Source of the DNA: Thermodesulfobacteriota bacterium
GTDB lineage: Bacteria > Desulfobacterota_D > UBA1144 > Nemesobacterales > Nemesobacteraceae
Length of the DNA stretch: 64,000 nucleotides
Reading direction: 5' to 3'
Assembly: GCA_965232155.1 (NCBI GenBank)
Contig: OZ246948.1
Location: forward strand, 1,016,434 to 1,080,433
A program made the translations under genes and the position numbers. Below are positions 6,355-53,402 of this stretch, piece after piece. The notes under the pieces were generated by a model that saw only the letters and a program-made list of their open reading frames with translations, had not been told where the DNA came from and searched no databases. Numbering within the stretch: the first letter of the stretch is position 1; the number at the start of each line of letters is the position of its first letter.

Positions 6355-7356
6355 ATGGTTTCTCTTAATTCAGGCGGACTGTCGGGTACGCCGATTCCGC
6401 CGCGTCGGAAAAATATCCGCACGCGGGAGCGCACACGTCTGCGGCACTTCTCCCCAATTTTTTGCGGTCCCTGGCGCATCGCAACGGGCTTTTTCCTTCT
6501 TGCCGCCATCATACTCGGCGCGCAGCTGGGACCGGCCCGCGCACAGACCGACTCGGAATCGGCCACCTACACAGTAACATTTGAAGGTAACTGGAACACC
6601 GACAGCACGCCCGGCGGGGTTGTGGGCGGTGCCCATTTCACGACGCTGATCGGCGCCGTACACAACAGCGATGCGACCTTCTGGGCAGCGGGCGAGATGG
6701 CCACCGCTGGCGTGGAAAGGGTGGCGGAACTTGGCATCACGGGCGCGTTCGAGACAGAAATCAGCAATGCCGAAGAAGGAACTGTAAAATCCCTCGTCAA
6801 GCAAAGCGGCACCTCCTCCACGGGTACGAGGACATTTGAAGTCGAATTCAGCCGTACTCATCCCCTGCTTACGCTTCTGTCGATGATCGGTCCCAGCCCG
6901 GACTGGTTCGTAGGCGTCTCCGGTCTGTCTCTACTGGACAGATCGGATGCCTGGCTGCTCTCTCACACAGTAGAACTGTTTTCCTACGACGCCGGAACCG
7001 AGAACGGGGAAGAATTTTCGCTGAGCAATCCACCCACAAGTCCCCAGGAAACCATCATCAGTCTCAAGGGACAGGGCAAGTTCTCCGACACACCCATGGC
7101 AAGGTTGAGCTTCACTCTCAACGCAGAGCCTTTAACGGGGGAGATTGACGGACTGTCGGCGGAAGCCGGGGAGGTGGACGACGGCGGTGGAGGCTGCACT
7201 CTTGGAGGAAGTGATAGCGGCAGTGCGTTCGGGCTGTTTCTTGCAACGTTGGCGCTGCTTCTTGCGGTTTTGCTTAACAGAAATAGGCAGAAGACAAAAC
7301 GCATTGAGATGAGGCGAAGGCATTTTTCTGAGAACGGCTTAAGAGAAACGGAGTAA
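6355..7356 (+). CDS. Secreted Spondin_N-domain protein with a C-terminal Gly-rich/Cys, TM helix, basic-tail sorting signal (GlyGly-CTERM-like or MYXO-CTERM-like)
   Basis: Signal-peptide-like GFFLLAAIILGAQLGPARA. TYTVTFEGNW and PSPDWFVG are the spondin-N hallmarks. C-terminus is GGGGCTLGGSDSGSAFGLFLATLALLLAVLLNRNRQKTKR. The true start is uncertain because no ATG lies immediately before the signal peptide. Confidence 0.5.
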   Translation: MVSLNSGGLSGTPIPPRRKNIRTRERTRLRHFSPIFCGPWRIATGFFLLAAIILGAQLGPARAQTDSESATYTVTFEGNWNTDSTPGGVVGGAHFTTLIGAVHNSDATFWAAGEMATAGVERVAELGITGAFETEISNAEEGTVKSLVKQSGTSSTGTRTFEVEFSRTHPLLTLLSMIGPSPDWFVGVSGLSLLDRSDAWLLSHTVELFSYDAGTENGEEFSLSNPPTSPQETIISLKGQGKFSDTPMARLSFTLNAEPLTGEIDGLSAEAGEVDDGGGGCTLGGSDSGSAFGLFLATLALLLAVLLNRNRQKTKRIEMRRRHFSENGLRETE

Positions 7357-7503
7357 GTAATCTGGTTTTTATGGTGAACCTTCATCACGTGATGTATAAT
7401 TACACCCGATCAGTCTTTAAAATTCCCTTAGGGTTTTTCGTCCGACGGGATTTGAAAATTCGAAAAGATTCGTCAATCAGGTTTTAGAGAAACCGGTAAA
7501 TTC

Positions 7504-9453
<1,950 letters not shown>

Positions 9454-9765: not shown

Positions 9766-10521
9766 ATGAGGCTTAACAGGTTTCTTTCCGAGTGCGGAAT
9801 AACATCAAGAAGAAAAGCGGATAACCTTATAAAGGCGGGACGGATAACTGTAAACGGGGAGGTCGTTCGTACTCTCGGTTCCGTGGTGGACGAGCTTGCT
9901 GACACCGTGGCGCTTGACGGAAAACCCGTGCGCAAGGAAAGAAAAAGATACGTGATGCTTAATAAGCCTCCTTTTTACCTCACTTCTCTCAAGTCCATGG
10001 AAGATGGAAAGAAAACGATAACGTCCTTTCTTGGAGACATAGAGCAGAGGGTTTATCCTGTCGGCAGGCTTGACTACGACTCTGAGGGACTTCTGATTCT
10101 CACAAACGACGGAGAACTTGCAAACAGAATACATCACCCCAGGTACAAGGTGGTAAAGACTTACCTGGCCGAGGTTTCGGGAGAGGTGCCAGATGAGCTA
10201 GAAACGGTACTTGGTGAAGGAACGGAAATTGAGAAACGTTTTACGAAGCCGGATTCAGTGAGTGTCCTTCAAGTGTCTCCAGGGCGCGCGCGGGCGAGCA
10301 TCTCATTTCACGAGGGAAGAAAGCATCTCGTGAAAAAGTACTTTGAGGCCTTCGGTTTTCGCGTTAGAAGGCTTAAGAGAATTTCGTGCGGCAACGTGCG
10401 TCTCGGCGAGCTTGAGAAGGGAGCGTGGCGCGACCTCAGCTCGGGGGAACTGAGGAACCTTCGAAAGATGACGGGACTTCTGCCCCGAGGTGAGGAGAAA
10501 ATGCCGGGAGGTGCTGTGTGA
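9766..10521 (+). CDS. RNA pseudouridine synthase, RsuA/RluB family (S4 domain plus catalytic domain)
   Basis: MRLNRFLSECGITSRRKADNLIKAGRITVNG (S4 domain) and VGRLDYDSEGLLILTNDG (catalytic Asp motif). GGAGAG ribosome-binding site 10 nt upstream of the ATG at 9766; the track ORF begins earlier, at 9709. Confidence 0.8.
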   Translation: MRLNRFLSECGITSRRKADNLIKAGRITVNGEVVRTLGSVVDELADTVALDGKPVRKERKRYVMLNKPPFYLTSLKSMEDGKKTITSFLGDIEQRVYPVGRLDYDSEGLLILTNDGELANRIHHPRYKVVKTYLAEVSGEVPDELETVLGEGTEIEKRFTKPDSVSVLQVSPGRARASISFHEGRKHLVKKYFEAFGFRVRRLKRISCGNVRLGELEKGAWRDLSSGELRNLRKMTGLLPRGEEKMPGGAV

Positions 10522-11860: not shown

Positions 11861-12002
11861 TTTAAGGTTTCCTAGGACTGAGCGTACGAAGAAATTATCA
11901 CGCAACCCTCCCCGAAAATCAAGTTTCCCATAGGGCCGGCGACCCTTGGGTTTCCTTGAAAACCCGGTCCCGTGTATTTATACTTACCCCAACATTGTAA
12001 AA

Positions 12003-12022
12003 GGCCGCGAAGTTCCGCGGCC
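12003..12022 (+). promoter_or_regulatory. Perfect 7-bp stem hairpin (GGCCGCG-aagttc-CGCGGCC) immediately upstream of the rhodanese ribosome-binding site
   Basis: Read directly from the sequence; no T-tract follows, so it is not a terminator. Sits in the divergent promoter region. Confidence 0.3.
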
Positions 12023-12039: not shown

Positions 12040-12882
12040 ATGGCGGATTACGCAAATCCCGATGTTTTGGTGAGCACGGACTGGGTAGAGGAGCATATAG
12101 ACGACCCTGATATCGTTATAGTGGAATCGGATGAGGATATATTGCTTTACGAAATAGGACACATAAGAAATTCGGTGAAATTCGACTGGCAGACCGAACT
12201 TCAGGATCAACTTGTAAGGGACTACGTGAGCAGGGAGAACTTCGAGGCGCTGCTTTCGGAAAAGGGAATTTCAAACGACCACGCGGTGGTCTTCTACGGG
12301 GACAGAAGCAACTGGTGGGCCTGCTACGCGTTCTGGACCTTCAAGGTTCTGGGGCATGAGAAATGCCTCATAATGGACGGCGGAAGGCAGAAATGGGTCG
12401 ACGAGGGAAGAGATATGGTAAAAGATGTTCCCGAGAGGGCCAAAACGAACTACAAAGTGTCGGCGGTCGATGAGTCAATAAGGGCCTTTCGCGACGACGT
12501 GCTGGAGCACATGGGCTCGGGCAGACCACTTGTGGACGTCCGTTCCCCGAAAGAGTATTCTGGAGAACTTCTTCACATGGAGGCTTATCCCCAGGAAGGC
12601 GCGCTTCGCGGAGGACATATTCCGGGTGCGGTAAACGTTCCCTGGGCTACGGCGGCGAACGAGGACGGAACTTTCCGCTCGGCCGATGAACTTGTCGAGA
12701 TATACGAAAAGGGACAGGGGCTTAGCAAGGATCAGGACGTGATCGCCTACTGCAGGATAGGGGAGCGCTCTTCTCACACATGGTTTGTCCTTACCTATCT
12801 TCTCGGGTTTGAGAATGTCAGAAATTACGACGGTTCGTGGACCGAGTGGGGGAACCTTGTAAGGGCTCCGATAGAAAAATAA
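12040..12882 (+). CDS. sseA: Tandem-rhodanese sulfurtransferase (thiosulfate/3-mercaptopyruvate sulfurtransferase family)
   Basis: Two rhodanese domains with active-site loop CRIGERSS in the second; typical [17 protein letters not shown]-terminus. Confidence 0.8.
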
Positions 12883-12912
12883 AAGGAGAAACGTTTTTGC
12901 GTGAATGAGAAA

Positions 12913-12951
12913 GGATGTGGTCTTAAGGGTCCGCATCCTTTTTTTTTTGAA
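12913..12951 (+). terminator. Rho-independent terminator after the rhodanese gene
   Basis: GGATGTGGTC-ttaagg-GTCCGCATCC stem followed by T10. Confidence 0.55.
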
Positions 12952-12962
12952 ATCGCGGGAAA

Positions 12963-13388
12963 ATGGCCAGCATAGAGGAAATAGTAGAGGAATTCCAGGT
13001 GGCGGACCGTCAGGGGATGATTGACCTGCTCAAGGACTACTCCGAGGAGCTGCCGGAGGTTCCCGAAAGGGTTCTCAGCCTGATGGACAGGGACGCCAAC
13101 CGTGTGCACGAGTGCGAAACCCCCGTTTTCATCTGGGTTGAGAGGGAAAACGGTGCCGTAATGATATTCGCCGACGTGCCGGGACCGTATCCGACCGTCA
13201 GGGGGCTTGTTTCGATTCTCGTAACCGCGTTTTCCGGCCTGAGCCCCGAGGAGATAGAGTCAGCTCCCCCTGATTTCATTTCCCAACTCGGACTTGCGCA
13301 GTTGCTCGGAACCAGGAGGATGTGGGGGATTTCCGCCGTCTACTCGAGAATAAAGAGCGAGGTGGGGAAAACGAAGGAGGCGCCATGA
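12963..13388 (+). CDS. sufE: SufE-family sulfur acceptor protein
   Basis: VHECETPVFIWVE aligns with SufE active-site region QGCQSQVWIV. The downstream blocks (RGLVSILVTAF...SPEEI; LGLAQLLGTRRMWGISAVYSRI) follow the SufE pattern. Confidence 0.7.
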   Translation: MASIEEIVEEFQVADRQGMIDLLKDYSEELPEVPERVLSLMDRDANRVHECETPVFIWVERENGAVMIFADVPGPYPTVRGLVSILVTAFSGLSPEEIESAPPDFISQLGLAQLLGTRRMWGISAVYSRIKSEVGKTKEAP

Positions 13389-13774
13389 TAGAAGAGCAGA
13401 GAATGAAGATGATCATGGATCACTACGAAAATCCGAGAAACTTCGGTCCGCTTGAGAACCCGACGGTGACGCTTAGAGGTGGCAACCCGAATTGCGGAGA
13501 CACGCTGAATATCTATATTCGCACAGCCGATGGGGGAGTCATAGAAGATATAAGTTTTGACGGGGAAGGCTGCACGATAAGCCAGGCCGCGGCTTCCCTT
13601 CTTACGGAGTTTATAAAGGGAAAGACTGTGGAGCGGCTCAGAGAGCTCGACTCTGACTACCTCAAGGAACTTCTTGGCAAGGACATCATGGTAACTCGCC
13701 CGAAATGCAGCCGCCTCGCCCTTGAAACCCTCAAATCATGGGCAAGGGATTTCGAGAGGGGAAAAACCGCCTGA
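13385..13774 (+). CDS. sufU: SufU/IscU-type Fe-S cluster scaffold / sulfur-transfer protein (NifU N-terminal domain)
   Basis: NPNCGD, GEGCTISQAAAS and PKCSRLALE three-Cys pattern. AGGAGG ribosome-binding site; 4-bp overlap with sufE. Confidence 0.75.
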   Translation: MIEEQRMKMIMDHYENPRNFGPLENPTVTLRGGNPNCGDTLNIYIRTADGGVIEDISFDGEGCTISQAAASLLTEFIKGKTVERLRELDSDYLKELLGKDIMVTRPKCSRLALETLKSWARDFERGKTA

Positions 13775-13826
13775 TTTTTGGTATACTTCTCTTTATTACT
13801 CAACCAGATTCAAGGAGATTCAAACG

Positions 13827-15161
13827 ATGAAAAACGGCAAACTCGATAAAACGGTTCTAAGCGAAAGGATTGAAGAAGCGCTTAAATACCCGCTTTTTGA
13901 TTCCATATTCAACAGGCGCTCAAGAAGATTCGGTCTTGGAATGGAGCTTAAGGACAGCACCCTTGAGTTCAAGTCGAACTACGATCCCGTGCCTCTCACA
14001 GAGATGGAGGAAGCGCTTCTGGTGTGGGCCGGAACGGGGCTCACCGGGCTTTGCCTCGCTGACCTGCCGCCAGAGAACGGGATAGACCTTCTATGCCAGT
14101 GGACGGGAAGAACCTGGCCTTCTGCGTGCAATAACCACGGGACTGAGCTTTTTTTCACAAATGATAACGGTCTTTACCACGTGGACGTAAAGAACATGCT
14201 TCCCAAGGAACATGAGATCGATCTGTTTTTCAAGCTCTCCCGCGAGGAGAAAATCGCGAGGGTTCTGGAACTCTACAGGGAAAGCATTAACAAGCTTGAG
14301 GACGGAAGGGCCGACATGCCCGACAAGATGCCGGGACTTTTTGAGTTTAACCAGTGGAATACAAACAAGCCCGGCACCACGCTTTTTGTTCCGGTGACGG
14401 ACGTCACCGAGGAGTACCTGAATCTTCTTACCCTTTACTGCAGCCACAGCTACGGATTCACGATCATAGACGATCTTACCGGAAAGCCCGCGGGCGTTGA
14501 GAAATGGGTGGAGACAGGCAGGCTCAAGGGCGATATAAAGCTTTCTCTATTCGATCTCGAGGTAAGAATTCTTACGGGACTTAACGTTGAGCAGGCGTTT
14601 ATCACGCAGAACATGGCCCTTGCTCTCCAGCCCCTGGGGCTTGCGGGATGGGCGTTTACGGGCTTCATACCGAGGTTCGCCATGGGAGCCGCTCCGAATC
14701 TGTTCAAGGGTCTCGGATTCCGTTTCGTTCAGCCGAAAAAAGGTACGATCGATCCTCCCACCACCGTTCCCGTAGGAAAGGACGGGGTTTTTGAAGCTTA
14801 CTGTCCACCCTACTATGAGAACATGGATGATGCGATTGATCACTTCTTGGCCCATAAATGGAGAGCGTGGGAATCCGACAAGCCTTTCCCGTACACGGAA
14901 CCCGACAGGCATCTCATGAAGGCCCCGAGGCCCACGGATACCACCATAGAGATTGTAAGGGCTGTCGCTAACTATATTTATGACACTTACGGCAGATTCC
15001 CAGCGTTTGTGGATCCCATGTACATGAGGCTAGTTTTTCAGGCGATGCACATAGACGTGGATTTCTATGACCAGTATTACCCGAAGGGTTCCTATTCGGA
15101 CAGGCATCTGCAAGCTTTTCTCGAGAACAATCCGGACCAGAGAGAGCGGTTTAAAGAGTAG
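13827..15161 (+). CDS. Enlarged nitroreductase-superfamily protein (444 aa), function unknown
   Basis: N-terminal FNRRSRRFG (RRSxRxF nitroreductase signature) and C-terminal ITQNMALALQPLGLAGWAFTGF (QNxxLAxxxLGLG), with about 250 extra residues between. Ribosome-binding site AAGGAG 8 nt upstream of the ATG at 13827. Confidence 0.5.
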   Translation: MKNGKLDKTVLSERIEEALKYPLFDSIFNRRSRRFGLGMELKDSTLEFKSNYDPVPLTEMEEALLVWAGTGLTGLCLADLPPENGIDLLCQWTGRTWPSACNNHGTELFFTNDNGLYHVDVKNMLPKEHEIDLFFKLSREEKIARVLELYRESINKLEDGRADMPDKMPGLFEFNQWNTNKPGTTLFVPVTDVTEEYLNLLTLYCSHSYGFTIIDDLTGKPAGVEKWVETGRLKGDIKLSLFDLEVRILTGLNVEQAFITQNMALALQPLGLAGWAFTGFIPRFAMGAAPNLFKGLGFRFVQPKKGTIDPPTTVPVGKDGVFEAYCPPYYENMDDAIDHFLAHKWRAWESDKPFPYTEPDRHLMKAPRPTDTTIEIVRAVANYIYDTYGRFPAFVDPMYMRLVFQAMHIDVDFYDQYYPKGSYSDRHLQAFLENNPDQRERFKE

Positions 15162-15217
15162 CGCCTGCCCTGTGAGTAGAGTTTGACCCGGTTTGCGGTA
15201 GGGGGAGAGAATCAGGC

Positions 15218-16550
15218 ATGCGCGTAGCTATCATCGGAAATGGGGTAACGGGGGTTGCGGCCGCCCTGAGTATACGCAGGCTCCAGCCCGACTGGGAGAT
15301 CATCATGATCTCGGGGGAGTCCTCTTTTCACTATTCCCGCCCGGCGCTCATGTACATATTCATGGGCCACATGAGCTACAAGGACACCAAGCCTTACGAG
15401 GACAGTTTCTGGAGGAAAAACCGCATTGATTTGGTAAGGGGATGGGTTACAGAAATTGATGCCGCCGGGAAAAAGCTCATTATGCACGAAAAAGATCCCG
15501 TTTCGTTCGATAAGCTGCTTGTCGCCACGGGATCCAAGTCAAACAAGTTCGGTTGGCCCGGCCAGGGTCTTGGAGGAGTACAGGGCTTCTACAGCCTTAT
15601 GGATCTCAGGCTTCTTTACGAGAACGTAAAAGGAGCCCGAAGTCGTCGGAGGTGGCCTGATCGGGATCGAGCTTGCTGAATGCTCCATTAAAAGGAGCCC
15701 GAAGCGCCGTTATCGTCGGAGGTGGCCTGATCGGGATCGAGCTTGCTGAGATGCTCCATTCGCGCAATATCCACGTCACACTGGTGAGAGAAGAGTCCTA
15801 CTGGATAACGTCCTTCCGATTGAGGAATCACGGATGATAAACCGCGTGATTCTGGAGCAGGGGATTGATCTCAGGCTCTTAACGGAGCTAAAGGAGATAG
15901 TAGGGGACGATTCGGGGAGAGTGCGGGGAGTCGTAACCAGCAAGGAGGAATTCATAGAATGCCAGATCGTCGGTCTTACCGCGGGAGTAAGTCCCAACAT
16001 AGCTCTTGCCAAGGCAAGCGGGATAAAGACAGGGAGGGGGATTCTGGTTGACCGCAGCTTCAGGACCGATACCCCGGATGTGTTTGCCGCCGGGGACTGC
16101 GCCGAGATAATCACTGAGGGGGATGGAAGGAACCTTATTCAGCAGGTCTGGTACACCGGCAAGAACCAGGGAAAAGTGGCTGGAGAGGCGATAGCCGGCC
16201 GACACAGCGTGTATGACCCCGGAATCTGGTATAACTCGGCTAAATTCTTCGATCTTGAGTACCAGACTTACGGTAACGTGAGAAACGTTCCTGCCCAGGG
16301 GGAGGACAGTTTTTACTGGGAGCATCCCGATCACAGCCGTTCAGTAAGAATCGTTACGAAAGACGGAGCCGTCTGCGGCATAAACGTCATGGGTCTTCGC
16401 TACAGCCACAGGGTTTGCGAGAGCTGGGTGGCGGAGAAAAGGCCCCTTGACTATGTGCTCGATCATCTGGGGGATGCCAATTTCGATCCGGAATTCTATG
16501 AAGAATGTGAAGCGGAAATAATAAGGGAGATAAGGAAACAGGCCGCCTGA
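15218..16550 (+). pseudogene. NAD(P)H-dependent FAD oxidoreductase of the pyridine-nucleotide-disulfide family (ferredoxin/rubredoxin-reductase or NirB-N-like), disrupted
   Basis: N-terminus MRVAIIGNGVTGVAAA...YSRPALMY (no redox-active Cys), second Rossmann RSAVIVGGGLIGIELAEML, C-terminal GDCAEI. The reading frame is broken by an imperfect 62/71-nt tandem duplication (15628-15760) and a 1-nt deletion near 15804 (GG vs GGG). Confidence 0.6.
15628..15760 (+). repeat. Imperfect tandem duplication (62 nt plus 71 nt) inside the flavoprotein gene
   Basis: Copy 1 is aaaaggagcccgaagTcgtcgg...gctgaAtgctccatt. Copy 2 carries an extra CGCCGTTAT and an extra G. Deleting copy 1 restores ...ENVKGARSAVIVGGGLIGIELAEMLHSRNIHVTLVREESYW. 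Confidence 0.8.
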
Positions 16551-17944
16551 TGGAACAAAATATTACAGGCTACGATTTTGACGAAGAAGCCCTTGGTTTT
16601 GAGGAACCGGAGAAGGCCCCGGACAAGCCGCTTGGAACCGGAGAAAGACTTTCTCTTGCCGTTTTGGGCTTCGGAATACTAATGTTTGCCCTTCAGTCCA
16701 TGGGTATGCCTCCGGGCGGCACGTGGGCCGGATTTCTTCTGGTATTTCTTCCTGTTTGCTTCGGTACGGCGTTTTACTTCTACCTTAATTTTAAGAGCAC
16801 CGTTCCGGGAATAAAACATGACAACATCTACTTCAGGGGAATAACCAACAAGGGGATTCTCGGCTGGCTTGTCGGCATTGTGTTCACCGGTTTCTACATA
16901 GCTCTCTACTGGTTTCCCGAATATCTGGCGGGGGGAATAAAGATCGTAAACCCCCTTTCTCAGGCCCTTTCAGGTTCTCCGGCCAACAACTGGTTTTTCT
17001 ACGGTTTTCTCTACACAGTGGCCGTTTTCGTTTTCGGCGCGAGAATGTTCATGAAATACAGGCATAACCGCTACCAGCAGATAAGAACGGCCTCCGTGAT
17101 GTTTTTCCAGCTCGGGTTCGCGTTTCTCATTCCCAACATCCTCAGGCTCTTTAACCAGCCCGAGTTCTACCTGAGCTATTTCTGGCCGCTCAAGCCCGAG
17201 TACCTGTTCCCCGGCACGTTCAGCTATTTAGTGAACCACCCCGGCGGTCTCGGAATGTTCCTTGTTTTCTGGGGAGCCGTGATGACCTTCATCGCCACTC
17301 CGCTTCTTACCTACTATTTCGGCAAGAGATGGTACTGCTCCTGGGTGTGCGGCTGCGGAGGGCTTGCTGAAACCATGGGAGACCCTTGGAGGCAGCTTTC
17401 CGACAAATCGAAAAAGGCATGGAGGATAGAGCGCTGGATCGTGCATTCCGTGCTGGTGTTTATCGTCGTTACGACGGTTCTTCTCTGGGTTAACTCCACA
17501 ACCTCGGGGGCGGTGTTCGGAGAAGCCTCGATGTCTCTTAAAAAATGGTATGGATTCTACATAGGGGCCATTTTTTCTGGAGTCATAGGAGTTGGTTTCT
17601 ATCCCATAATGGGAAGCAGGGTGTGGTGTCGGTTCGGTTGCCCTATGGCGGCTATTCTAGGGATTTTCCAGAGGTATCTTTCGAGATTCAGGATTACAAC
17701 AAACGGCGACCAGTGCATGTCATGCGGCAACTGTTCCACTTACTGCGAGATGGGCATAGATGTCAGGGCTTACGCTCAGAAGGGCGAGAACATAGTGAGA
17801 GCGTCGTGCGTTGGATGCGGGGTGTGCTCGGCCGTGTGTCCCAGGGGGGTGCTTAAGCTTGAAAACGGGGGAACTTTCAAGGACAGGTTCTCGGGGGCGG
17901 ACAAGCCGCTTGGGGCACTTATCGATTCACTTAGACATGTCTAG
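16550..17944 (+). CDS. Membrane polyferredoxin of the NapH/MauN/CcoG(FixG)-like family
   Basis: Multiple TM helices carrying WYCSWVCGCGG and RVWCRFGCPMAAILG (CxxxC-P motifs as in NapH/CcoG). C-terminal 2x[4Fe-4S] domain CMSCGNCSTYCEMG...CVGCGVCSAVCPRG. Confidence 0.65.
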   Translation: MEQNITGYDFDEEALGFEEPEKAPDKPLGTGERLSLAVLGFGILMFALQSMGMPPGGTWAGFLLVFLPVCFGTAFYFYLNFKSTVPGIKHDNIYFRGITNKGILGWLVGIVFTGFYIALYWFPEYLAGGIKIVNPLSQALSGSPANNWFFYGFLYTVAVFVFGARMFMKYRHNRYQQIRTASVMFFQLGFAFLIPNILRLFNQPEFYLSYFWPLKPEYLFPGTFSYLVNHPGGLGMFLVFWGAVMTFIATPLLTYYFGKRWYCSWVCGCGGLAETMGDPWRQLSDKSKKAWRIERWIVHSVLVFIVVTTVLLWVNSTTSGAVFGEASMSLKKWYGFYIGAIFSGVIGVGFYPIMGSRVWCRFGCPMAAILGIFQRYLSRFRITTNGDQCMSCGNCSTYCEMGIDVRAYAQKGENIVRASCVGCGVCSAVCPRGVLKLENGGTFKDRFSGADKPLGALIDSLRHV

Positions 17945-18005
17945 CTTCGGCGCCCGAAGTCTTTATTTTCCGATCCTTAAAATGCCCGACACAACAGCTA
18001 AGCGC

Positions 18006-23699: not shown

Positions 23700-24598
23700 G
23701 TGATGAATTGTTTCGTAAAATCACACGGGTTGGGAAATGACTATATCGTCCTAGACAGTGCCGAAATAGATTTTGATCTCGGCAAATCCGCCATAGAACT
23801 TATATGCCACAGGAATTACGGCATAGGTTCGGACGGCATACTGCTTCTGGTTCCCCCTGCAAGGGGGGATTTCGGGCTCAGGATTCTCAATCCTGACGGA
23901 AGCGAGGCGGAAAAAAGCGGAAACGGGCTCAGGATTTTCGCAAAGTATCTCTACGAGAGAAAACACGCCTCGGACAAGACTTTTTCCATAGATACTCCCG
24001 GCGGTCTTGTTACTGCCGAAGTTGAGGAAGAAGACGGAAAAGTCCACCACGTCACTGTGGAGATGGGCGCTGCGACTTTCAGGGCGGATGAGATACCGGT
24101 AGATATAGAAGAGGAAGAAGCGGTGGCGCAGCGTCTGGTTCTCGGCGCGGGAGAATTTGATTTTACCGCCGTTTCGGTGGGGAATCCCCACTGCGTTATT
24201 TTCTTCGAAGAGCTAAGAGAAGATCTGATAAGAGAACTCGGACCCGAAATAGAAACCCATCCCGTCTTTCCTAACAGAACTAATGTTCAGTTCGCCCAGG
24301 TGATCTCGCCCGACAGTGTTCGTATTTTGATCTGGGAGAGGGGGGCTGGCTACACTCTTGCCTCAGGAAGCAGTTCCTGCGCGGTCGCCGCCGCGTGTGT
24401 GAAGTCCGGTCTTACGGACCGGAAGCTCAGGGTGCTGATGCCTGGCGGGCATCTCGACATAAGCGTCGGGGAGGACTGGGCGATCACTATGCGCGGCGAG
24501 GTGGAAGAAGTCTTTCTCAGGAATGTTAAGCGACGATCTTCTTTACAAGCTAAGAAATCCTTCCTCTATAAACTTATAGGGCAACCGGTTCATTTTTT
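23700..24598 (+). CDS. dapF: Diaminopimelate epimerase; no stop codon before the downstream amidohydrolase start (apparent in-frame fusion)
   Basis: NCFVKSHGLGNDYIVLD, GNGLRIF, SVGNPHCVIF and ERGAGYTLASGSSSCAVAAA: both DapF half-domains with catalytic Cys residues. Frame continues ...GEVEEVFLRNVKRRSSLQAKKS...MERLLLAADVV. Confidence 0.85.
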
Positions 24599-25855
24599 GA
24601 TGGAGAGACTGCTTTTAGCGGCGGATGTGGTGATTCCGGTAAGTTCTGAACCGATTCGCAATGGAGCCATCGTGGTGGACGGGGGACGTATCATTGACAT
24701 CGGAACATCAGATAGAATCGAGGCTGACTATCCCGGCTTGCAGAAAATAAGAAAGCCGAACTCTATAATACTCCCTGGGTTCGTAAACGCCCACACCCAC
24801 CTTGAACTCAGTTGGACAAAGGGGAAGATCAGGGGTTTCGAAGATTTCACCGGATGGCTCGAGAGGCTGATCACTCTTAAAGCCGGCGGGGTTGATCAAG
24901 ATCTTGTGGAGGATTCAATGAGGGCGGGGATTCGCGACGTCATTGAGAGCGGAGTCACCACAGTCGGAGAGATATCTTCCCTGGATTTCGGCGGGAGGGA
25001 GATTCTTAGAAGCTCGGGAATGAGAATTATTGCATTTCTTGAACTTTTTGACCGCATCTCCCAAGACTTTCCTCGCTCGAATTTCAAAGAGAGGGCCTCT
25101 ATGAGGAAAGACCTTTTCCTCATGCGCCTTATTCCTGCGGGCCGGGGCTTCTGGAGGCGGTTTTTGCCTGTGCGCGCGAAAACGCGGTTGCGGCGGGAAT
25201 CCACCTGGGCGAGAGTCCCGATGAAGTCGATTTTCTGAAGAACCTGCCCAATGAATTTGAACGGAAAATCTTTCCGCTCATAAAAAAAGAAATCTTCAAA
25301 AGGCCACGGGCCGATACTCCGACACGCTACATAAACAGATTCCTCCGCGGAAAAAACATAAGACTCTCCGCAGTTCACATGGTTCAAGTGGCGGATGAAG
25401 ATATGGAGATAATCCGAGGCGCCGATATCGGCATTATTCTCTGCCCAAGAAGCAATGTTTTTCTCAGAGTGGGCAAACCTAACCTGAGCCAGATGCTTGA
25501 TCATAAAAGAGTAGGGCTCGGGACCGACGGACTTTCAAGCAACTCGGATCTTGATTTCTTTCAGGAGATCAGGTTCCTGCATGAAATTATGGTTGAGCAG
25601 GGAATACGGCAAAGCACCCGTCTGGCGGTCTACTTTGCGACTCTGGGCGGAGCAAGGGCTCTTTTTATCGAGAAGAAGACGGGGAGTCTTGAGGTCGGAA
25701 AAAGTGCTGATGTCATATGCATTGGGTGCAAAGGGGCAATTGCCCCGGACCCCTATTCCTCGATAGTGTCTTCAAAGCCGGAGGACCTCCAGTTCTCAAT
25801 TGTAGGAGGGAATTTCATCTACAAAAAGGACTCTCCGGCTCCTTGTGAGCATTAG
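24599..25855 (+). CDS. Amidohydrolase-superfamily deaminase (MtaD/SsnA/aminofutalosine-deaminase-like), frameshifted near 25115
   Basis: ADVVIPVSSEPIRNGAIVVDGGRIIDIGT...ILPGFVNAHTHLELS. A -1 frameshift then follows in a CCC run (should read ...RKDLFPHAPYSCGPGLLEAVF...HLGESPDEVDFL...). It continues as track ORF 25379..25855 (GTDGLSSNSDLDFFQE...GSLEVGKSADVI). Confidence 0.6.
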
Positions 25856-25872
25856 TTTCCTCAGTATCTGCG

Positions 25873-26949
25873 ATGGCTGAACCTAAGCCCGAAAAGCTTT
25901 TTGTCTATGGAACCCTGCGAAAGGGCGGGGTAAGAAGCGGGCACCTTGAGCGATGCAGGTTGCTCAGGATGATAAAAGTTCCCGGGATTCTTTACCGTAC
26001 GCCTTTTGATTATCCGGCGGCCGTGTTTGACGAGACTTCCCCGCTTGCCGTCCTGGGAGAGCTTTATGAACTTCCCCCGGATTCTGAAGTCTTCATCGGA
26101 AGCGTGGACCGTCTCGAAGGGGTGAATGAAAAGCTTTTTTCAAGATCCGTTATCTGCTTGGAAGAGGAGTTTTTTTACGCCTATGAACCCGGCCCTGAGC
26201 TCAGAAGGCAGATTAGCGATGCGGACATAATAAAAAGCGGCAACTGGTTCTCGGGCCCCGACATCTGCGGCGCGGATCCTTTTTCTTTTGCCGTCAGTTT
26301 TGAAAACATCCAGAAGCGGTATTACAGGATGAAATCTGACGGTCGCTCAGAAGACAATATTTTTCTTGAAGGCACGGTCCCGGTTCTGGTTACCTGTCCG
26401 CACTCAACCGCTCACACGAGAATGGGAAAACTGAAACGCCATGAGTTCTATACCGCCGCTCTGGGAGCCGTGCTGCATATGGTTCTCGGCTGCCACTTTC
26501 TTTACGCGAACAGGGAACAGGAAACAGACCCGAATTACTATGACGACTGCGGTTTTAAGTCTGCGCTCGGAAGAGTTCTCTCCGCGAAGAAAATAGATCT
26601 GGTTGTGGACATACACGGTACCGGAAACGAGAGGTCCGAGGACCTGTTTCCAGGCGTGGGGGTTGGAAGGGAGTTCCTTCTTTCGGCGCCTGATGTTCTT
26701 GACAGATTTTATCTTGTCGCCGAAGAACATGGAATTGTGACCGGAAGCGCCGATATATTCCCCGCCGCAAGGCAGATGACCGTGGCCAAGTTCGCTGCGA
26801 AGCGGTTTTCGGTTCCCGCAATCCAGGTTGAGATAAGCGACAGGCTCAGGATGCCATGGCGACGGGAAGATGAGTTCCGCCGTCTCATAGGATTTCTTCT
26901 CGGATTTGTTGAAAAAGTAATCTCGGAGAAAACTGGCCAGAGCGGATAA
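25873..26949 (+). CDS. Fusion of a gamma-glutamyl cyclotransferase (AIG2/GGCT-like) domain and an N-formylglutamate-amidohydrolase-like (FGase/zinc-hydrolase) domain
   Basis: N-terminus KLFVYGTLRKGG...YPAAVF...GELYEL (GGCT fold motifs). C-terminus VLVTCPHSTAHTR...VDIHGTGNERSED resembles FGase/succinylglutamate-desuccinylase-type metal sites. Confidence 0.5.
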   Translation: MAEPKPEKLFVYGTLRKGGVRSGHLERCRLLRMIKVPGILYRTPFDYPAAVFDETSPLAVLGELYELPPDSEVFIGSVDRLEGVNEKLFSRSVICLEEEFFYAYEPGPELRRQISDADIIKSGNWFSGPDICGADPFSFAVSFENIQKRYYRMKSDGRSEDNIFLEGTVPVLVTCPHSTAHTRMGKLKRHEFYTAALGAVLHMVLGCHFLYANREQETDPNYYDDCGFKSALGRVLSAKKIDLVVDIHGTGNERSEDLFPGVGVGREFLLSAPDVLDRFYLVAEEHGIVTGSADIFPAARQMTVAKFAAKRFSVPAIQVEISDRLRMPWRREDEFRRLIGFLLGFVEKVISEKTGQSG

Positions 26950-31415: not shown

Positions 31416-32666
31416 TTAGCTACCATATGGCAACCTCGTATCAATTTCACGGTTCGCAGGGACTGTGCTAATACCAGAACCCTCCCCGTGCAGTCGCGCC
31501 ATTCCCAGACGCCTTATGTTTATTGCCGCATTCGTGTCCGCATTGGACGCATAGCCGCAACTCACACACAGGAACCGTGCTTGGGTTTTTCGGTTCTCTT
31601 TATCTGTATGCCCGCACTCGGAGCATGTCTGACTCGTGTATGCGGGATTTACTTCTATTAGTCTCCCGCACTTGTACTCAAGATTTCTTCTAAGTTCTCC
31701 CAAGGCTGTATCAAGCATTGCCCTGTTAAGTCCCGCCTTCTGCTTTACGTTCTTTCCCGGATTCTCTATCGTACCCTTTGCGGAAGCCGTCATATTCTTC
31801 ACCTTCAGATCTTCCACAACTATTGTTCCGCACTTGTCCGCAATTTCCCTGGTGGTCTTGTGAATCCAGTCCTTGCGGATACTGGCTATCTTTCTGCTCA
31901 CCTTCGCAAGTTTCTTCTTCGTGTCCTTCCGCCTGTTAGACCCCTTTATCTGTCTTGCAATCCTTCGCTGATACCACTTTCGCCTTGCTTCTTTCTTCTT
32001 TAAGTCGGGCAGGAAGTAAAAGTTTCCATCCGAAGTGGCTACCTGACGTGCGTTCATGTCAACGCCCAGAATCTCACCGTCATCCGGTCTTTTCTCCACT
32101 TCCACTTCATAGAATACGAATGCCCGCCACCTGTGCCCGTCATGGCGAAGCACTACCTGCCTGGGTACGCCATCTTCCCAGGGGTTTCCTCCCCTGCGGG
32201 TCATCTTTACCCAACCGACCTTGGGGATAAGAAGCAGAGAGTATTTTTTATCAATATTTTTTATTCTGAAGTTCTCCTTGCTTGGAAGCGTGAAGCTGGG
32301 TACGTGCCTGTTTCTGCTTATGGGCTTCGGAAAACCTTTCTTGCCAGCCATCGCCTCTTTCAATGCATCCGCAAAATACTTGAGGGTATGCTTTACAGGA
32401 TTGGCGGGAAGTTCAAGCATCCACTCCGTCTCATGCCTTAGCCTGGTGAACTCCACACCGAGACTGAAATAACTGGTATGCGGTCTCTGCCCTTTGTCAT
32501 TCTTGAATGCCTGGTAGTCGGCAAGGTTCTTTTCCCTGAAATGGTTCCAGACATATCTACAGGCTCCCGCTATCTGGAACATCTTGGTTGCCTTAGCCTT
32601 AGCAGTAGGCAGAACGACAAACTCTACGGTACGTATTTGTTTAGTCATTGCAATATATCGTATCAT
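31416..32666 (-). CDS. tnpB: TnpB (IS200/IS605-family OrfB, RuvC-like RNA-guided endonuclease); alternative start at M7 (32648)
   Basis: N-terminus RTVEFVVLPTAKAKATKMFQIAGACRYVWNHF. RuvC-I GVDMNARQ, RuvC-II IVVEDLKVKNM, C-terminal NPAYTSQTCSECGH...FLCVSCGYASNADTNAAINI (Zn ribbon plus RuvC-III). All three catalytic acidic residues are present. No tnpA adjacent. Confidence 0.85.
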   Translation of the reverse strand: MIRYIAMTKQIRTVEFVVLPTAKAKATKMFQIAGACRYVWNHFREKNLADYQAFKNDKGQRPHTSYFSLGVEFTRLRHETEWMLELPANPVKHTLKYFADALKEAMAGKKGFPKPISRNRHVPSFTLPSKENFRIKNIDKKYSLLLIPKVGWVKMTRRGGNPWEDGVPRQVVLRHDGHRWRAFVFYEVEVEKRPDDGEILGVDMNARQVATSDGNFYFLPDLKKKEARRKWYQRRIARQIKGSNRRKDTKKKLAKVSRKIASIRKDWIHKTTREIADKCGTIVVEDLKVKNMTASAKGTIENPGKNVKQKAGLNRAMLDTALGELRRNLEYKCGRLIEVNPAYTSQTCSECGHTDKENRKTQARFLCVSCGYASNADTNAAINIRRLGMARLHGEGSGISTVPANREIDTRLPYGS

Positions 32667-53258: not shown

Positions 53259-53372
53259 TAGGGTGGCTATGCTGAAGGGGAAGCACCCGGTCCCATCCCG
53301 AACCCGGAAGTTAAGTCCTTATAGGCCGATGATACTGCTCCTTTCAGGAGTGGGAAAGTAGGTGGCTGCCCT
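53259..53372 (+). rRNA. rrf: 5S ribosomal RNA, not linked to 16S/23S within this window
   Basis: GGGTGGCTATGCTGAAGGGGAAGCACCCGGTCCCATCCCGAACCCGGAAGTTAAGTCC...GCCGATGATACTG...GGGAAAGTAGGTGGCTGCCC carries the universal 5S loop motifs (CCCATCCCGAAC, GAAGTTAAG, GGGAAAGTAGGT) and 5-prime/3-prime helix I complementarity. Followed by T6. Confidence 0.85.
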
Positions 53373-53402
53373 TTTTTCTTTCCTTGCTTTCTCAACTTTC
53401 CG

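Follow-up and report, generated by a model that had tools for sequence, protein, structure and literature searches.

Part of the locus that we report here has a described counterpart in a gene pair of Mycobacterium tuberculosis, in which the SufE-like protein encoded by the adjacent Rv3284 ('SseE') activates the tandem rhodanese SseA, outside any suf operon (PMC12375888). The other components of the locus recall further known kinds: the SufS-SufE and SufS-SufU relays of the SUF system; the AorABC complex of Aromatoleum (8c0z), in which AorC passes electrons directly between its flavin adenine dinucleotide (FAD) and a 4Fe-4S cluster in AorA, its polyferredoxin-like partner, 9.5 Å away in the solved structure (PMC10413684); the membrane polyferredoxins NapH/MauN, CcoG/FixG and YccM; and the flavin mononucleotide (FMN)-dependent nitroreductase superfamily, for which the enlarged members ThcOx, BmdC, McbC and Ava_2154 (3eo7) serve as comparison. 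The locus itself is a row of six genes in a window of 64,000 nucleotides (nt) from a Thermodesulfobacteriota bacterium (contig OZ246948.1, positions 1,016,434 to 1,080,433 of the forward strand); 'the window' denotes this whole stretch, and all coordinates are counted from its first letter. We refer to the products, in gene order, as Rhod, SufE, SufU, X, Flav and Memb. With confidence and doubt in about equal parts, we read the row as a lineage-specific mosaic of one Candidatus Dadabacteria lineage, in which three separable modules (Rhod-SufE-SufU, X and Flav-Memb) are loosely coupled around X; the cluster is probably concerned with sulfur, iron-sulfur (Fe-S) and oxidative-stress maintenance. 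Its parts belong to known kinds and one of its pairings has been published; the X family and the Flav-Memb pair are uncharacterised variants, and it is X, rather than the cluster as a 'system', that is the interesting unknown.

The six genes all lie on the + strand: Rhod, a tandem-rhodanese thiosulfate sulfurtransferase of the SseA/CysA type with 280 residues (12040..12882); a SufE-like sulfur acceptor of 141 residues (12963..13388); a short SufU-like protein of 129 residues with a NifU_N domain (13385..13774), the gene of which overlaps that of SufE by 4 nt; X, an uncharacterised protein of 444 residues with a predicted nitroreductase fold (13827..15161), which follows SufU after a gap of 52 nt; Flav, an NAD(P)H/FAD flavoprotein of the ferredoxin/rubredoxin-reductase type (15218..16550), which begins 56 nt after X and is disrupted as sequenced; and Memb, a polytopic membrane polyferredoxin of 464 residues (16550..17944), with a 1-nt overlap with Flav. 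A first-pass annotation of this DNA, made from the sequence without database searches, had proposed this layout, and the open reading frames (ORFs) of the window agree with it in all six genes, their overlaps and gaps and the terminator after Rhod. Pfam likewise recovers the proposed identities: two rhodanese domains, SufE, NifU_N, Pyr_redox_2, and Fer4_5 with two 4Fe-4S motifs. Every NCBIfam equivalog model scores below its cutoff for the window proteins, that for SufU coming nearest. As the annotation had also held, no cysteine desulfurase that could partner SufE is encoded alongside: tblastn with two Dadabacteria desulfurases gave zero matches in the 64 kb. Nothing resembling SufBCD was seen among the ORFs scanned, no sequence search aimed at SufBCD having been made.

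The separability of the modules emerges from a comparison of about 170 related loci overall, with the six proteins mapped onto 85 loci ordered by the tree of X. The best 80 genomic relatives of X are metagenome-assembled genomes (MAGs), mostly labelled Candidatus Dadabacteria or Thermodesulfobacteriota, and the window is syntenic with, and 83-92% identical in DNA to, its closest relatives. The full contiguous array, in the same order, is confined to the clade of the window, about 24 Dadabacteria species representatives. Elsewhere the following arrangements are observed (loci bear the prefix L): Rhod-SufE-SufU followed by a spacer of 0.15-3.3 kb and X, with or without Flav-Memb, the SufU-X spacer of L003 and L005 being occupied by opposite-strand genes; a tight Rhod-SufU-X, SufE being absent, in a basal marine clade; in L075, SufU and a class-V aminotransferase gene (cysteine desulfurase) that diverge from X; X-Flav-Memb without the relay in L068, L072, L074 and L077; and X alone in a large clade of around 35 loci, often beside HU and def. 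Even in the clade of the window one genome carries 1.6 kb inserted between SufU and X, and another close relative (L173, on a 2,441,076-bp contig; L022) has about 12.7 kb between Rhod-SufE-SufU and X-Flav-Memb. In this 12.7-kb spacer lie hypothetical genes and transposase genes of the ISAzo13, Mu/rve and IS110 types. The array is flanked by tmk and rny in the window and by photolyase and priA-glnE genes in L003 and L005; hence, it has been retained while its surroundings changed. Co-conservation of the row, as implied by the first-pass annotation, therefore holds for the contiguity and order in the roughly 24 representatives and for the recurrence of X beside SufU in several arrangements, but the modules can be parted.

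The row also carries predicted transcription signals. An intrinsic terminator consisting of a hairpin and T10 (12910..12948, +), recognised from sequence and fold, separates Rhod from SufE: the 88-nt intergenic stretch folds at -31.6 kcal/mol (z -4.74), and a hairpin with a U-tract is kept with differing stem sequences in L006, L013, L020, L027 and L003. The terminator that the annotation had assigned to Rhod is thus conserved in relatives. Between SufU and X lies an extended -10 promoter-like element, TGgTATAcT (13779..13787, +), found by match to the consensus and by conservation, together with a Shine-Dalgarno sequence AAGGAG upstream of X (13812-13817, +). The TATA core of this element does not vary across the window and 20 close relatives (L006-L030, at around 9950-9990), while the intergenic bases around it do, which suggests that X has its own promoter. 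For the X-Flav gap RNAalifold predicts no conserved structure. The array is accordingly not an obligate operon, in view of the terminator after Rhod, the -10 element before X, the insertions between SufU and X and the solitary X of some 35 loci. Rather, as far as sequence comparison can tell, the modules are juxtaposed and probably partly co-expressed, and do not constitute an obligate single machine. At the two ends of the row there are further candidate signals: 5' of Rhod, a promoter-like site identified by consensus match only (TTGAAA, 17 nt, TATACT; 10/12 consensus matches; 11956..11984, +), and 3' of Memb, a terminator-like hairpin GCTTCGGCGCCCGAAGT with a T-rich tail (17944..17970, +), picked up by a consensus scan. 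Between the promoter-like site and the ribosome-binding site of Rhod, in the presumed 5' leader, lies a perfect GC-rich hairpin, GGCCGCGAAGTTCCGCGGCC (12003-12022, +).

The annotation had counted the Flav-Memb pair as part of one set. By gene order it is an autonomous, translationally coupled two-gene unit that recurs without X or the sulfur-relay genes in other phyla and elsewhere in Dadabacteria. Homologues of Memb with 58-65% identity are found in MAGs labelled Planctomycetota, Zixibacteria, Acidobacteriota, Myxococcota and others, and in all three genomes inspected they pair with the flavoprotein only, the two genes standing alone with a 4-nt overlap: L090, a Dadabacteria genome with X elsewhere; L091, Engelhardtia mirabilis; and L092, another genome. 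Memb has about eight hydrophobic segments by hydropathy, Pfam Fer4_5 and dicluster families, and the motifs CSWVCGC (residues 263-269), CRFGCP (360-365) and two CxxCxxCxxxC (389-399 and 420-430). Set beside the NapH/MauN pattern of two CxxxCP and two 4Fe-4S motifs, this amounts to one CxxxCP, one CxxxCxC and two CxxCxxCxxxC. Memb shares with NapH/MauN, CcoG/FixG and YccM a polytopic architecture, two 4Fe-4S motifs of the cytoplasmic type and the CxxxC(P) motif of Fer4_5. It differs from them in its long N-terminal membrane domain without a family match, in that no FixG_C domain is detected, and in its scores far under the NapH/MauN cutoffs (TIGR02163, the quinol dehydrogenase subunit, 56.3 against 213.05 bits; NapH NF007013, 52 against 234). 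Its partner is a Pyr_redox_2 flavoprotein, and its neighbours are Flav, a hypothetical gene and rny: no nap, mau, cco or nos genes lie nearby.

Repaired across its lesions (see below), Flav matches PF07992 (Pyr_redox_2; E 1e-48) and PF00070 (E 4e-16) and has the dinucleotide-binding motifs IIGNGVTG at residue 5 and VGGGLIGIE at residue 146. Its nearest PDB entries are 1xhc, AorC (8c0z_E, E 3.2e-32) and 3fg2, that is, proteins of the rubredoxin/ferredoxin-reductase type together with AorC. Like these, it combines a Pyr_redox_2 FAD/NAD(P)H protein with the lack of a redox cysteine. The geometry of AorC and AorA provides a solved precedent for the proposed path from NAD(P)H via FAD to 4Fe-4S in Flav-Memb; unlike in AorABC, the partner of Flav is an integral membrane protein, and there is no catalytic tungsten or oxygenase subunit. 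The annotation had instead likened the cluster to the fused CoA-disulfide reductase (CoADR)-rhodanese persulfide reductases (Npsr; 3nta, 8a56), which share with it the Pyr_redox_2 fold and the presence of a rhodanese, here as a gene in the same neighbourhood. The similarity of Flav to these is at the family level (E ~1e-19 to 1e-22). The redox-active cysteine near residue 43 is absent, the site reading FHYSRPAL; the cysteines of the repaired protein are 228, 274, 366, 380 and 410, with none earlier; and the 424-residue orthologues have Pyr_redox domains only, without a fused C-terminal rhodanese. As Flav lacks the catalytic cysteine of CoADR, the analogy fails, and we reject Flav as a disulfide or persulfide reductase of the Npsr/CoADR type.

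The NAD(P)H-FAD reductase of the annotation is thus of the expected ferredoxin-reductase type, but its gene is not a single ORF. It has to be read in three frames on account of a 62-nt duplication with deletions: the extra, imperfect tandem copy at 15628..15689 (+), evident from Tandem Repeats Finder (15627-15760, period 70, 2 copies, 87% matches) and from alignment to relatives, differs from the 71-nt copy after it solely in two deletions, one of 8 nt and one of 1 nt. When aligned with L006, L012 and L013, the gene shows further losses of 3 nt near 15779 and of 1 nt near 15806. The Flav fragments are found on a single public contig (1,513,048 bp) only; all close relatives have intact orthologues of 424 residues, against 423 for the repaired window protein. 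Outside the 180-nt lesion stretch there are no stops and the sequence is 94-96% identical to the orthologues. The frameshift reflects an error of the assembly or else an inactivation that is recent and specific to the strain. A long-decayed pseudogene is unlikely because the lesions cluster and the remainder is intact; the other five genes of the row are also intact. Further along the window (23700-25900, compared with close genomes) lie two more such lesions: an additional nucleotide near 24516 deprives dapF of its stop, with read-through into the next gene, an amidohydrolase, which itself has lost 1 nt near 25061. This makes three damaged genes, Flav, dapF and the amidohydrolase, in the roughly 20 kb comparable with relatives.

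The first three genes encode recognisable sulfur carriers. Rhod contains PF00581 in two stretches (E 2.7e-35) and has full-length PDB matches to 1uar, 3hzu, 3hwi and 3aax; it is a close homologue (E 1e-100 to 1e-117) of the Thermus rhodanese and of SseA and CysA of M. tuberculosis, with 1uar at E 1.3e-117 and SseA (3hzu) at E 1.6e-104. Its active-site loop, within the C-terminal domain, reads CRIGERS (residues 238-244, nt 12751-12771), and loops of the CRxGxR type are a mark of thiosulfate sulfurtransferases. SufE matches PF02657 (E 4e-22; 78.7 bits, the cutoff being 27) and retains the acceptor cysteine, in HECETP (residues 49-54), as the counterpart of E. coli Cys51. It falls far under the cutoffs of the NCBIfam SufE/CsdE equivalogs (NF006792, 26.3 against 160; TIGR03391 CsdE, 37 against 136.4). 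SufU matches Pfam NifU_N (E 4.8e-27) and approaches TIGR01994 (91.7 bits against a cutoff of 92.5), in an alignment that covers only residues 8-91 of 129. It displays Cys36 and Asp38 (NCGD), Cys63 (GEGCT) and Cys108 (RPKCS), and so conforms to the SufU pattern of three cysteines and an aspartate, with lysine and not histidine ahead of the last cysteine. The insertion characteristic of SufU, some 19 residues that separate cysteines two and three further, is absent, Cys63 and Cys108 being 45 residues apart, a spacing that is IscU-like. Compared with the SUF system, then, the SufE fold with its acceptor cysteine and the SufU-like cysteines, aspartate and lysine are shared, but SufS is missing from the 64 kb, the SufU-like protein is short and without the insertion, and SufE is remote from its equivalogs.

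The pairing of Rhod with SufE is, by sequence and gene order, of an already described type and not new: as in the SseA-Rv3284 pair, a tandem rhodanese gene has directly after it a SufE-family gene with a conserved cysteine, outside a suf operon (PMC12375888). It departs from that pair in the terminator that parts Rhod from SufE, in the SufU-like gene that overlaps SufE, and in the marine Dadabacteria clade that has Rhod-SufU-X without SufE. The statement of the annotation that the cluster matches no described operon is for this reason true only in part. The literature searched on Dadabacteria rhodanese, YccM and NapH-like polyferredoxin yielded no description of the cluster or of the Flav-Memb pair.

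Protein X belongs to no family in Pfam or NCBIfam, with zero matches in either. The nitroreductase profile PF00881 does not match it and is matched by four of 21 homologues (best E 0.0073, under the gathering score), and a PDB profile search with the X alignment returned chance matches only (E > 1), that is, no solved relative by sequence. The 1846 homologues of X include none with a functional name or a Pfam domain; a profile search assembled 1,659 clusters (50% identity) with E values up to 1e-3, 189 of them at 1e-30 or better. Ten remote homologues were likewise without Pfam or NCBIfam matches, save for sub-threshold nitroreductase hits and one fusion: in P0309 (863 residues) an X-family domain (430-858) stands behind an MpaB/Lcp-type oxygenase domain (E 7.9e-27). 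The nitroreductase alpha+beta fold is recovered at the fold level, with 155-177 of the 444 residues superposing. The family alignment reveals an invariant RRSRRF near the N-terminus (residues 30-35) and Cys101 (SACNNH) as the sole invariant cysteine; motifs of the RRSxRxF type bind the FMN phosphate in nitroreductases. The nitroreductase-superfamily assignment of the annotation consequently stands at the fold level and lacks hidden Markov model support for the window protein; X is nonetheless a member of an undescribed family. Judged by sequence identity, X is among the most conserved Candidatus Dadabacteria proteins, very slowly evolving and near-universal in the class, with 482 genomes of the species-representative set encoding it: it is 97% identical in genomes whose DNA is 83-92% identical, and 70% identical at the base of the class. 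In context too it departs from the enlarged nitroreductases, which keep company with natural-product genes, whereas X is found with sulfur carriers and its paralogue with PerR.

This paralogue, X-II, forms the sister group of X at about 52-57% identity and often occurs in the same genomes. In 30 of the 60 metagenome loci with enough upstream sequence it immediately follows a gene of the Fur family, for which PerR is the best-matching model. L113 is an example (PerR-like gene 6502-6951, X-II 6998-8299); in L088 (4746-11337) and L089 X-II is in a row with Dps-like, luciferase-like, cytochrome c peroxidase, OsmC and FNR-like genes, and several X-II loci have a conserved small ORF of about 100-107 residues downstream. 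We take X to be, most likely, an oxidoreductase that depends on a flavin and is tied to sulfur/Fe-S and oxidative-stress maintenance; its sister paralogue is linked to PerR, and X recurs beside SufU-type genes. In two separate Dadabacteria clades (L075, 12318-15347, -; L080, 11343-14176, -) an AMP-binding acyl-CoA-synthetase-like gene and a gene of 380-403 residues, for which no confident family was found, converge on X-I.

Taken as a mosaic, the row would work as follows. In module A, the SseA-type sulfurtransferase would load sulfane sulfur on the cysteine of CRIGERS and hand it to the SufE-like acceptor, in the manner of SseA and Rv3284; SufE would probably pass it on to the short SufU-like protein, making up a persulfide relay independent of cysteine desulfurase. 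In module B, X may serve as reductant or redox partner of this relay, which is the weakest step of the scheme. In module C, Flav would deliver electrons of NAD(P)H to the NapH/CcoG-like Memb, at its 4Fe-4S clusters, and a terminal acceptor, for which a quinone or a metal ion are candidates, would receive them from there. Several observations weigh against this picture. The gaps of 52-56 nt, with no terminator from SufE through Memb, are equally compatible with a single operon. The most conserved loops of X (residues 73-104 and 282-327) are modelled at low confidence, and its suggested FMN binding is deduced from the predicted fold and the RRSRRF motif. The oxidative-stress theme comes from the neighbours of the paralogue, not from X itself. 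Rhod, SufE, SufU, Flav and Memb occur in none of 80 X-II or other loci (L093-L172), and a PerR box of the B. subtilis-type consensus is not found near the cluster, with one chance-level match far off. Lastly, every association of X with SufU falls in one class, Dadabacteria, so that inherited synteny could account for much of the pattern.

Pure inherited synteny is indeed the alternative that survives best, and we consider it a real, if rather unlikely, possibility. The genes would then have unrelated functions (cyanide or sulfane-sulfur handling, an accessory Fe-S scaffold, and a flavoenzyme and a membrane redox pair each unconnected with the rest) and would be together by nothing more than descent in Dadabacteria. 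The restriction to one class, the solitary X in about 35 loci, the toleration of insertions between modules, the fact that X-II and remoter homologues are never beside these genes in 80 loci, and the predicted transcription signals of each module would all follow from it. Descent accounts less readily for X adjoining SufU-type genes in at least three arrangements, in one of which a cysteine desulfurase replaces the rhodanese, for an array that outlives turnover of both its flanks, and for the tight and conserved spacing in the clade of the window.

The same spacing could be taken as the mark of an integrated pathway, as the first-pass annotation had read the cluster, which we regard as unlikely. 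All six products would belong to one NAD(P)H-driven system, in which electrons from Flav reach X via Memb or directly, and X reduces the persulfides of Rhod-SufE-SufU to sulfide or for Fe-S clusters, or else matures the membrane polyferredoxin. The contiguous array on one strand, with its 52-56-nt gaps and overlaps, the order and spacing kept in about 24 species representatives and through the change of flanks, and the independent adjoining of X to each of the other two modules in other clades are consistent with this. Set against it are the Flav-Memb pairs that occur by themselves, both in other phyla and at other sites of Dadabacteria genomes, the conserved terminator after Rhod and -10 element before X, the opposite-strand genes or 12.7 kb of transposases that split the array without loss of its parts, the lack of a redox-active cysteine in Flav, and the disruption of Flav in this assembly with the other five genes intact. 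A narrower proposal, which we put forward as speculation with the odds well against it, casts X as the missing reductase of a thiosulfate-fed, desulfurase-free relay: its flavin and Cys101 would reduce carrier persulfides for the building or repair of Fe-S clusters under oxidative stress, with electrons from Flav-Memb in the lineage of the window. That X might instead be a sulfur-accepting or -inserting biosynthetic enzyme for a thio-cofactor or small molecule, supplied by the relay and modelled on ThcOx, BmdC, McbC and similar enlarged oxidases of the nitroreductase fold from natural-product pathways, could appeal to the invariant Cys101, the adjoining sulfur carriers and the one MpaB/Lcp fusion, but is very improbable beside the lack of any cyclodehydratase, nonribosomal peptide synthetase, precursor peptide or other biosynthetic genes nearby and the housekeeping-like character of a protein near-universal in its class, 70-97% identical and often encoded beside HU and def.

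Elsewhere in the window we observed: a TnpB-type gene (31416-32666, -), apparently intact, encoding 416 residues with OrfB_IS605 and a Cas12f1-like TNB domain; a gene (6355-7356, +) for a protein with a Spondin_N domain (E 1.9e-39), a domain that is mostly found in animal extracellular-matrix proteins; and a lone 5S rRNA gene (53259-53374, +; 86.7 bits), the 64 kb containing neither a 16S or 23S match nor any tRNA.

Should none of the functional readings be right, the region amounts to housekeeping genes in ordinary juxtaposition. If X is a redox partner of a rhodanese-driven persulfide relay, it would bear on the source of electrons for persulfide reduction in SufU-type systems and on whether thiosulfate can stand in for cysteine as the sulfur source of Fe-S assembly; should X prove to be the relay reductase, its family would be a new functional class within the nitroreductase superfamily. 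The Flav-Memb pair, uncharacterised and present in several phyla, is a case of its own: assigning its acceptor would annotate thousands of genes. For the X family, the two paralogues each point to a context open to testing, one with SufU-type sulfur carriers and the other with a peroxide regulon of the PerR type.

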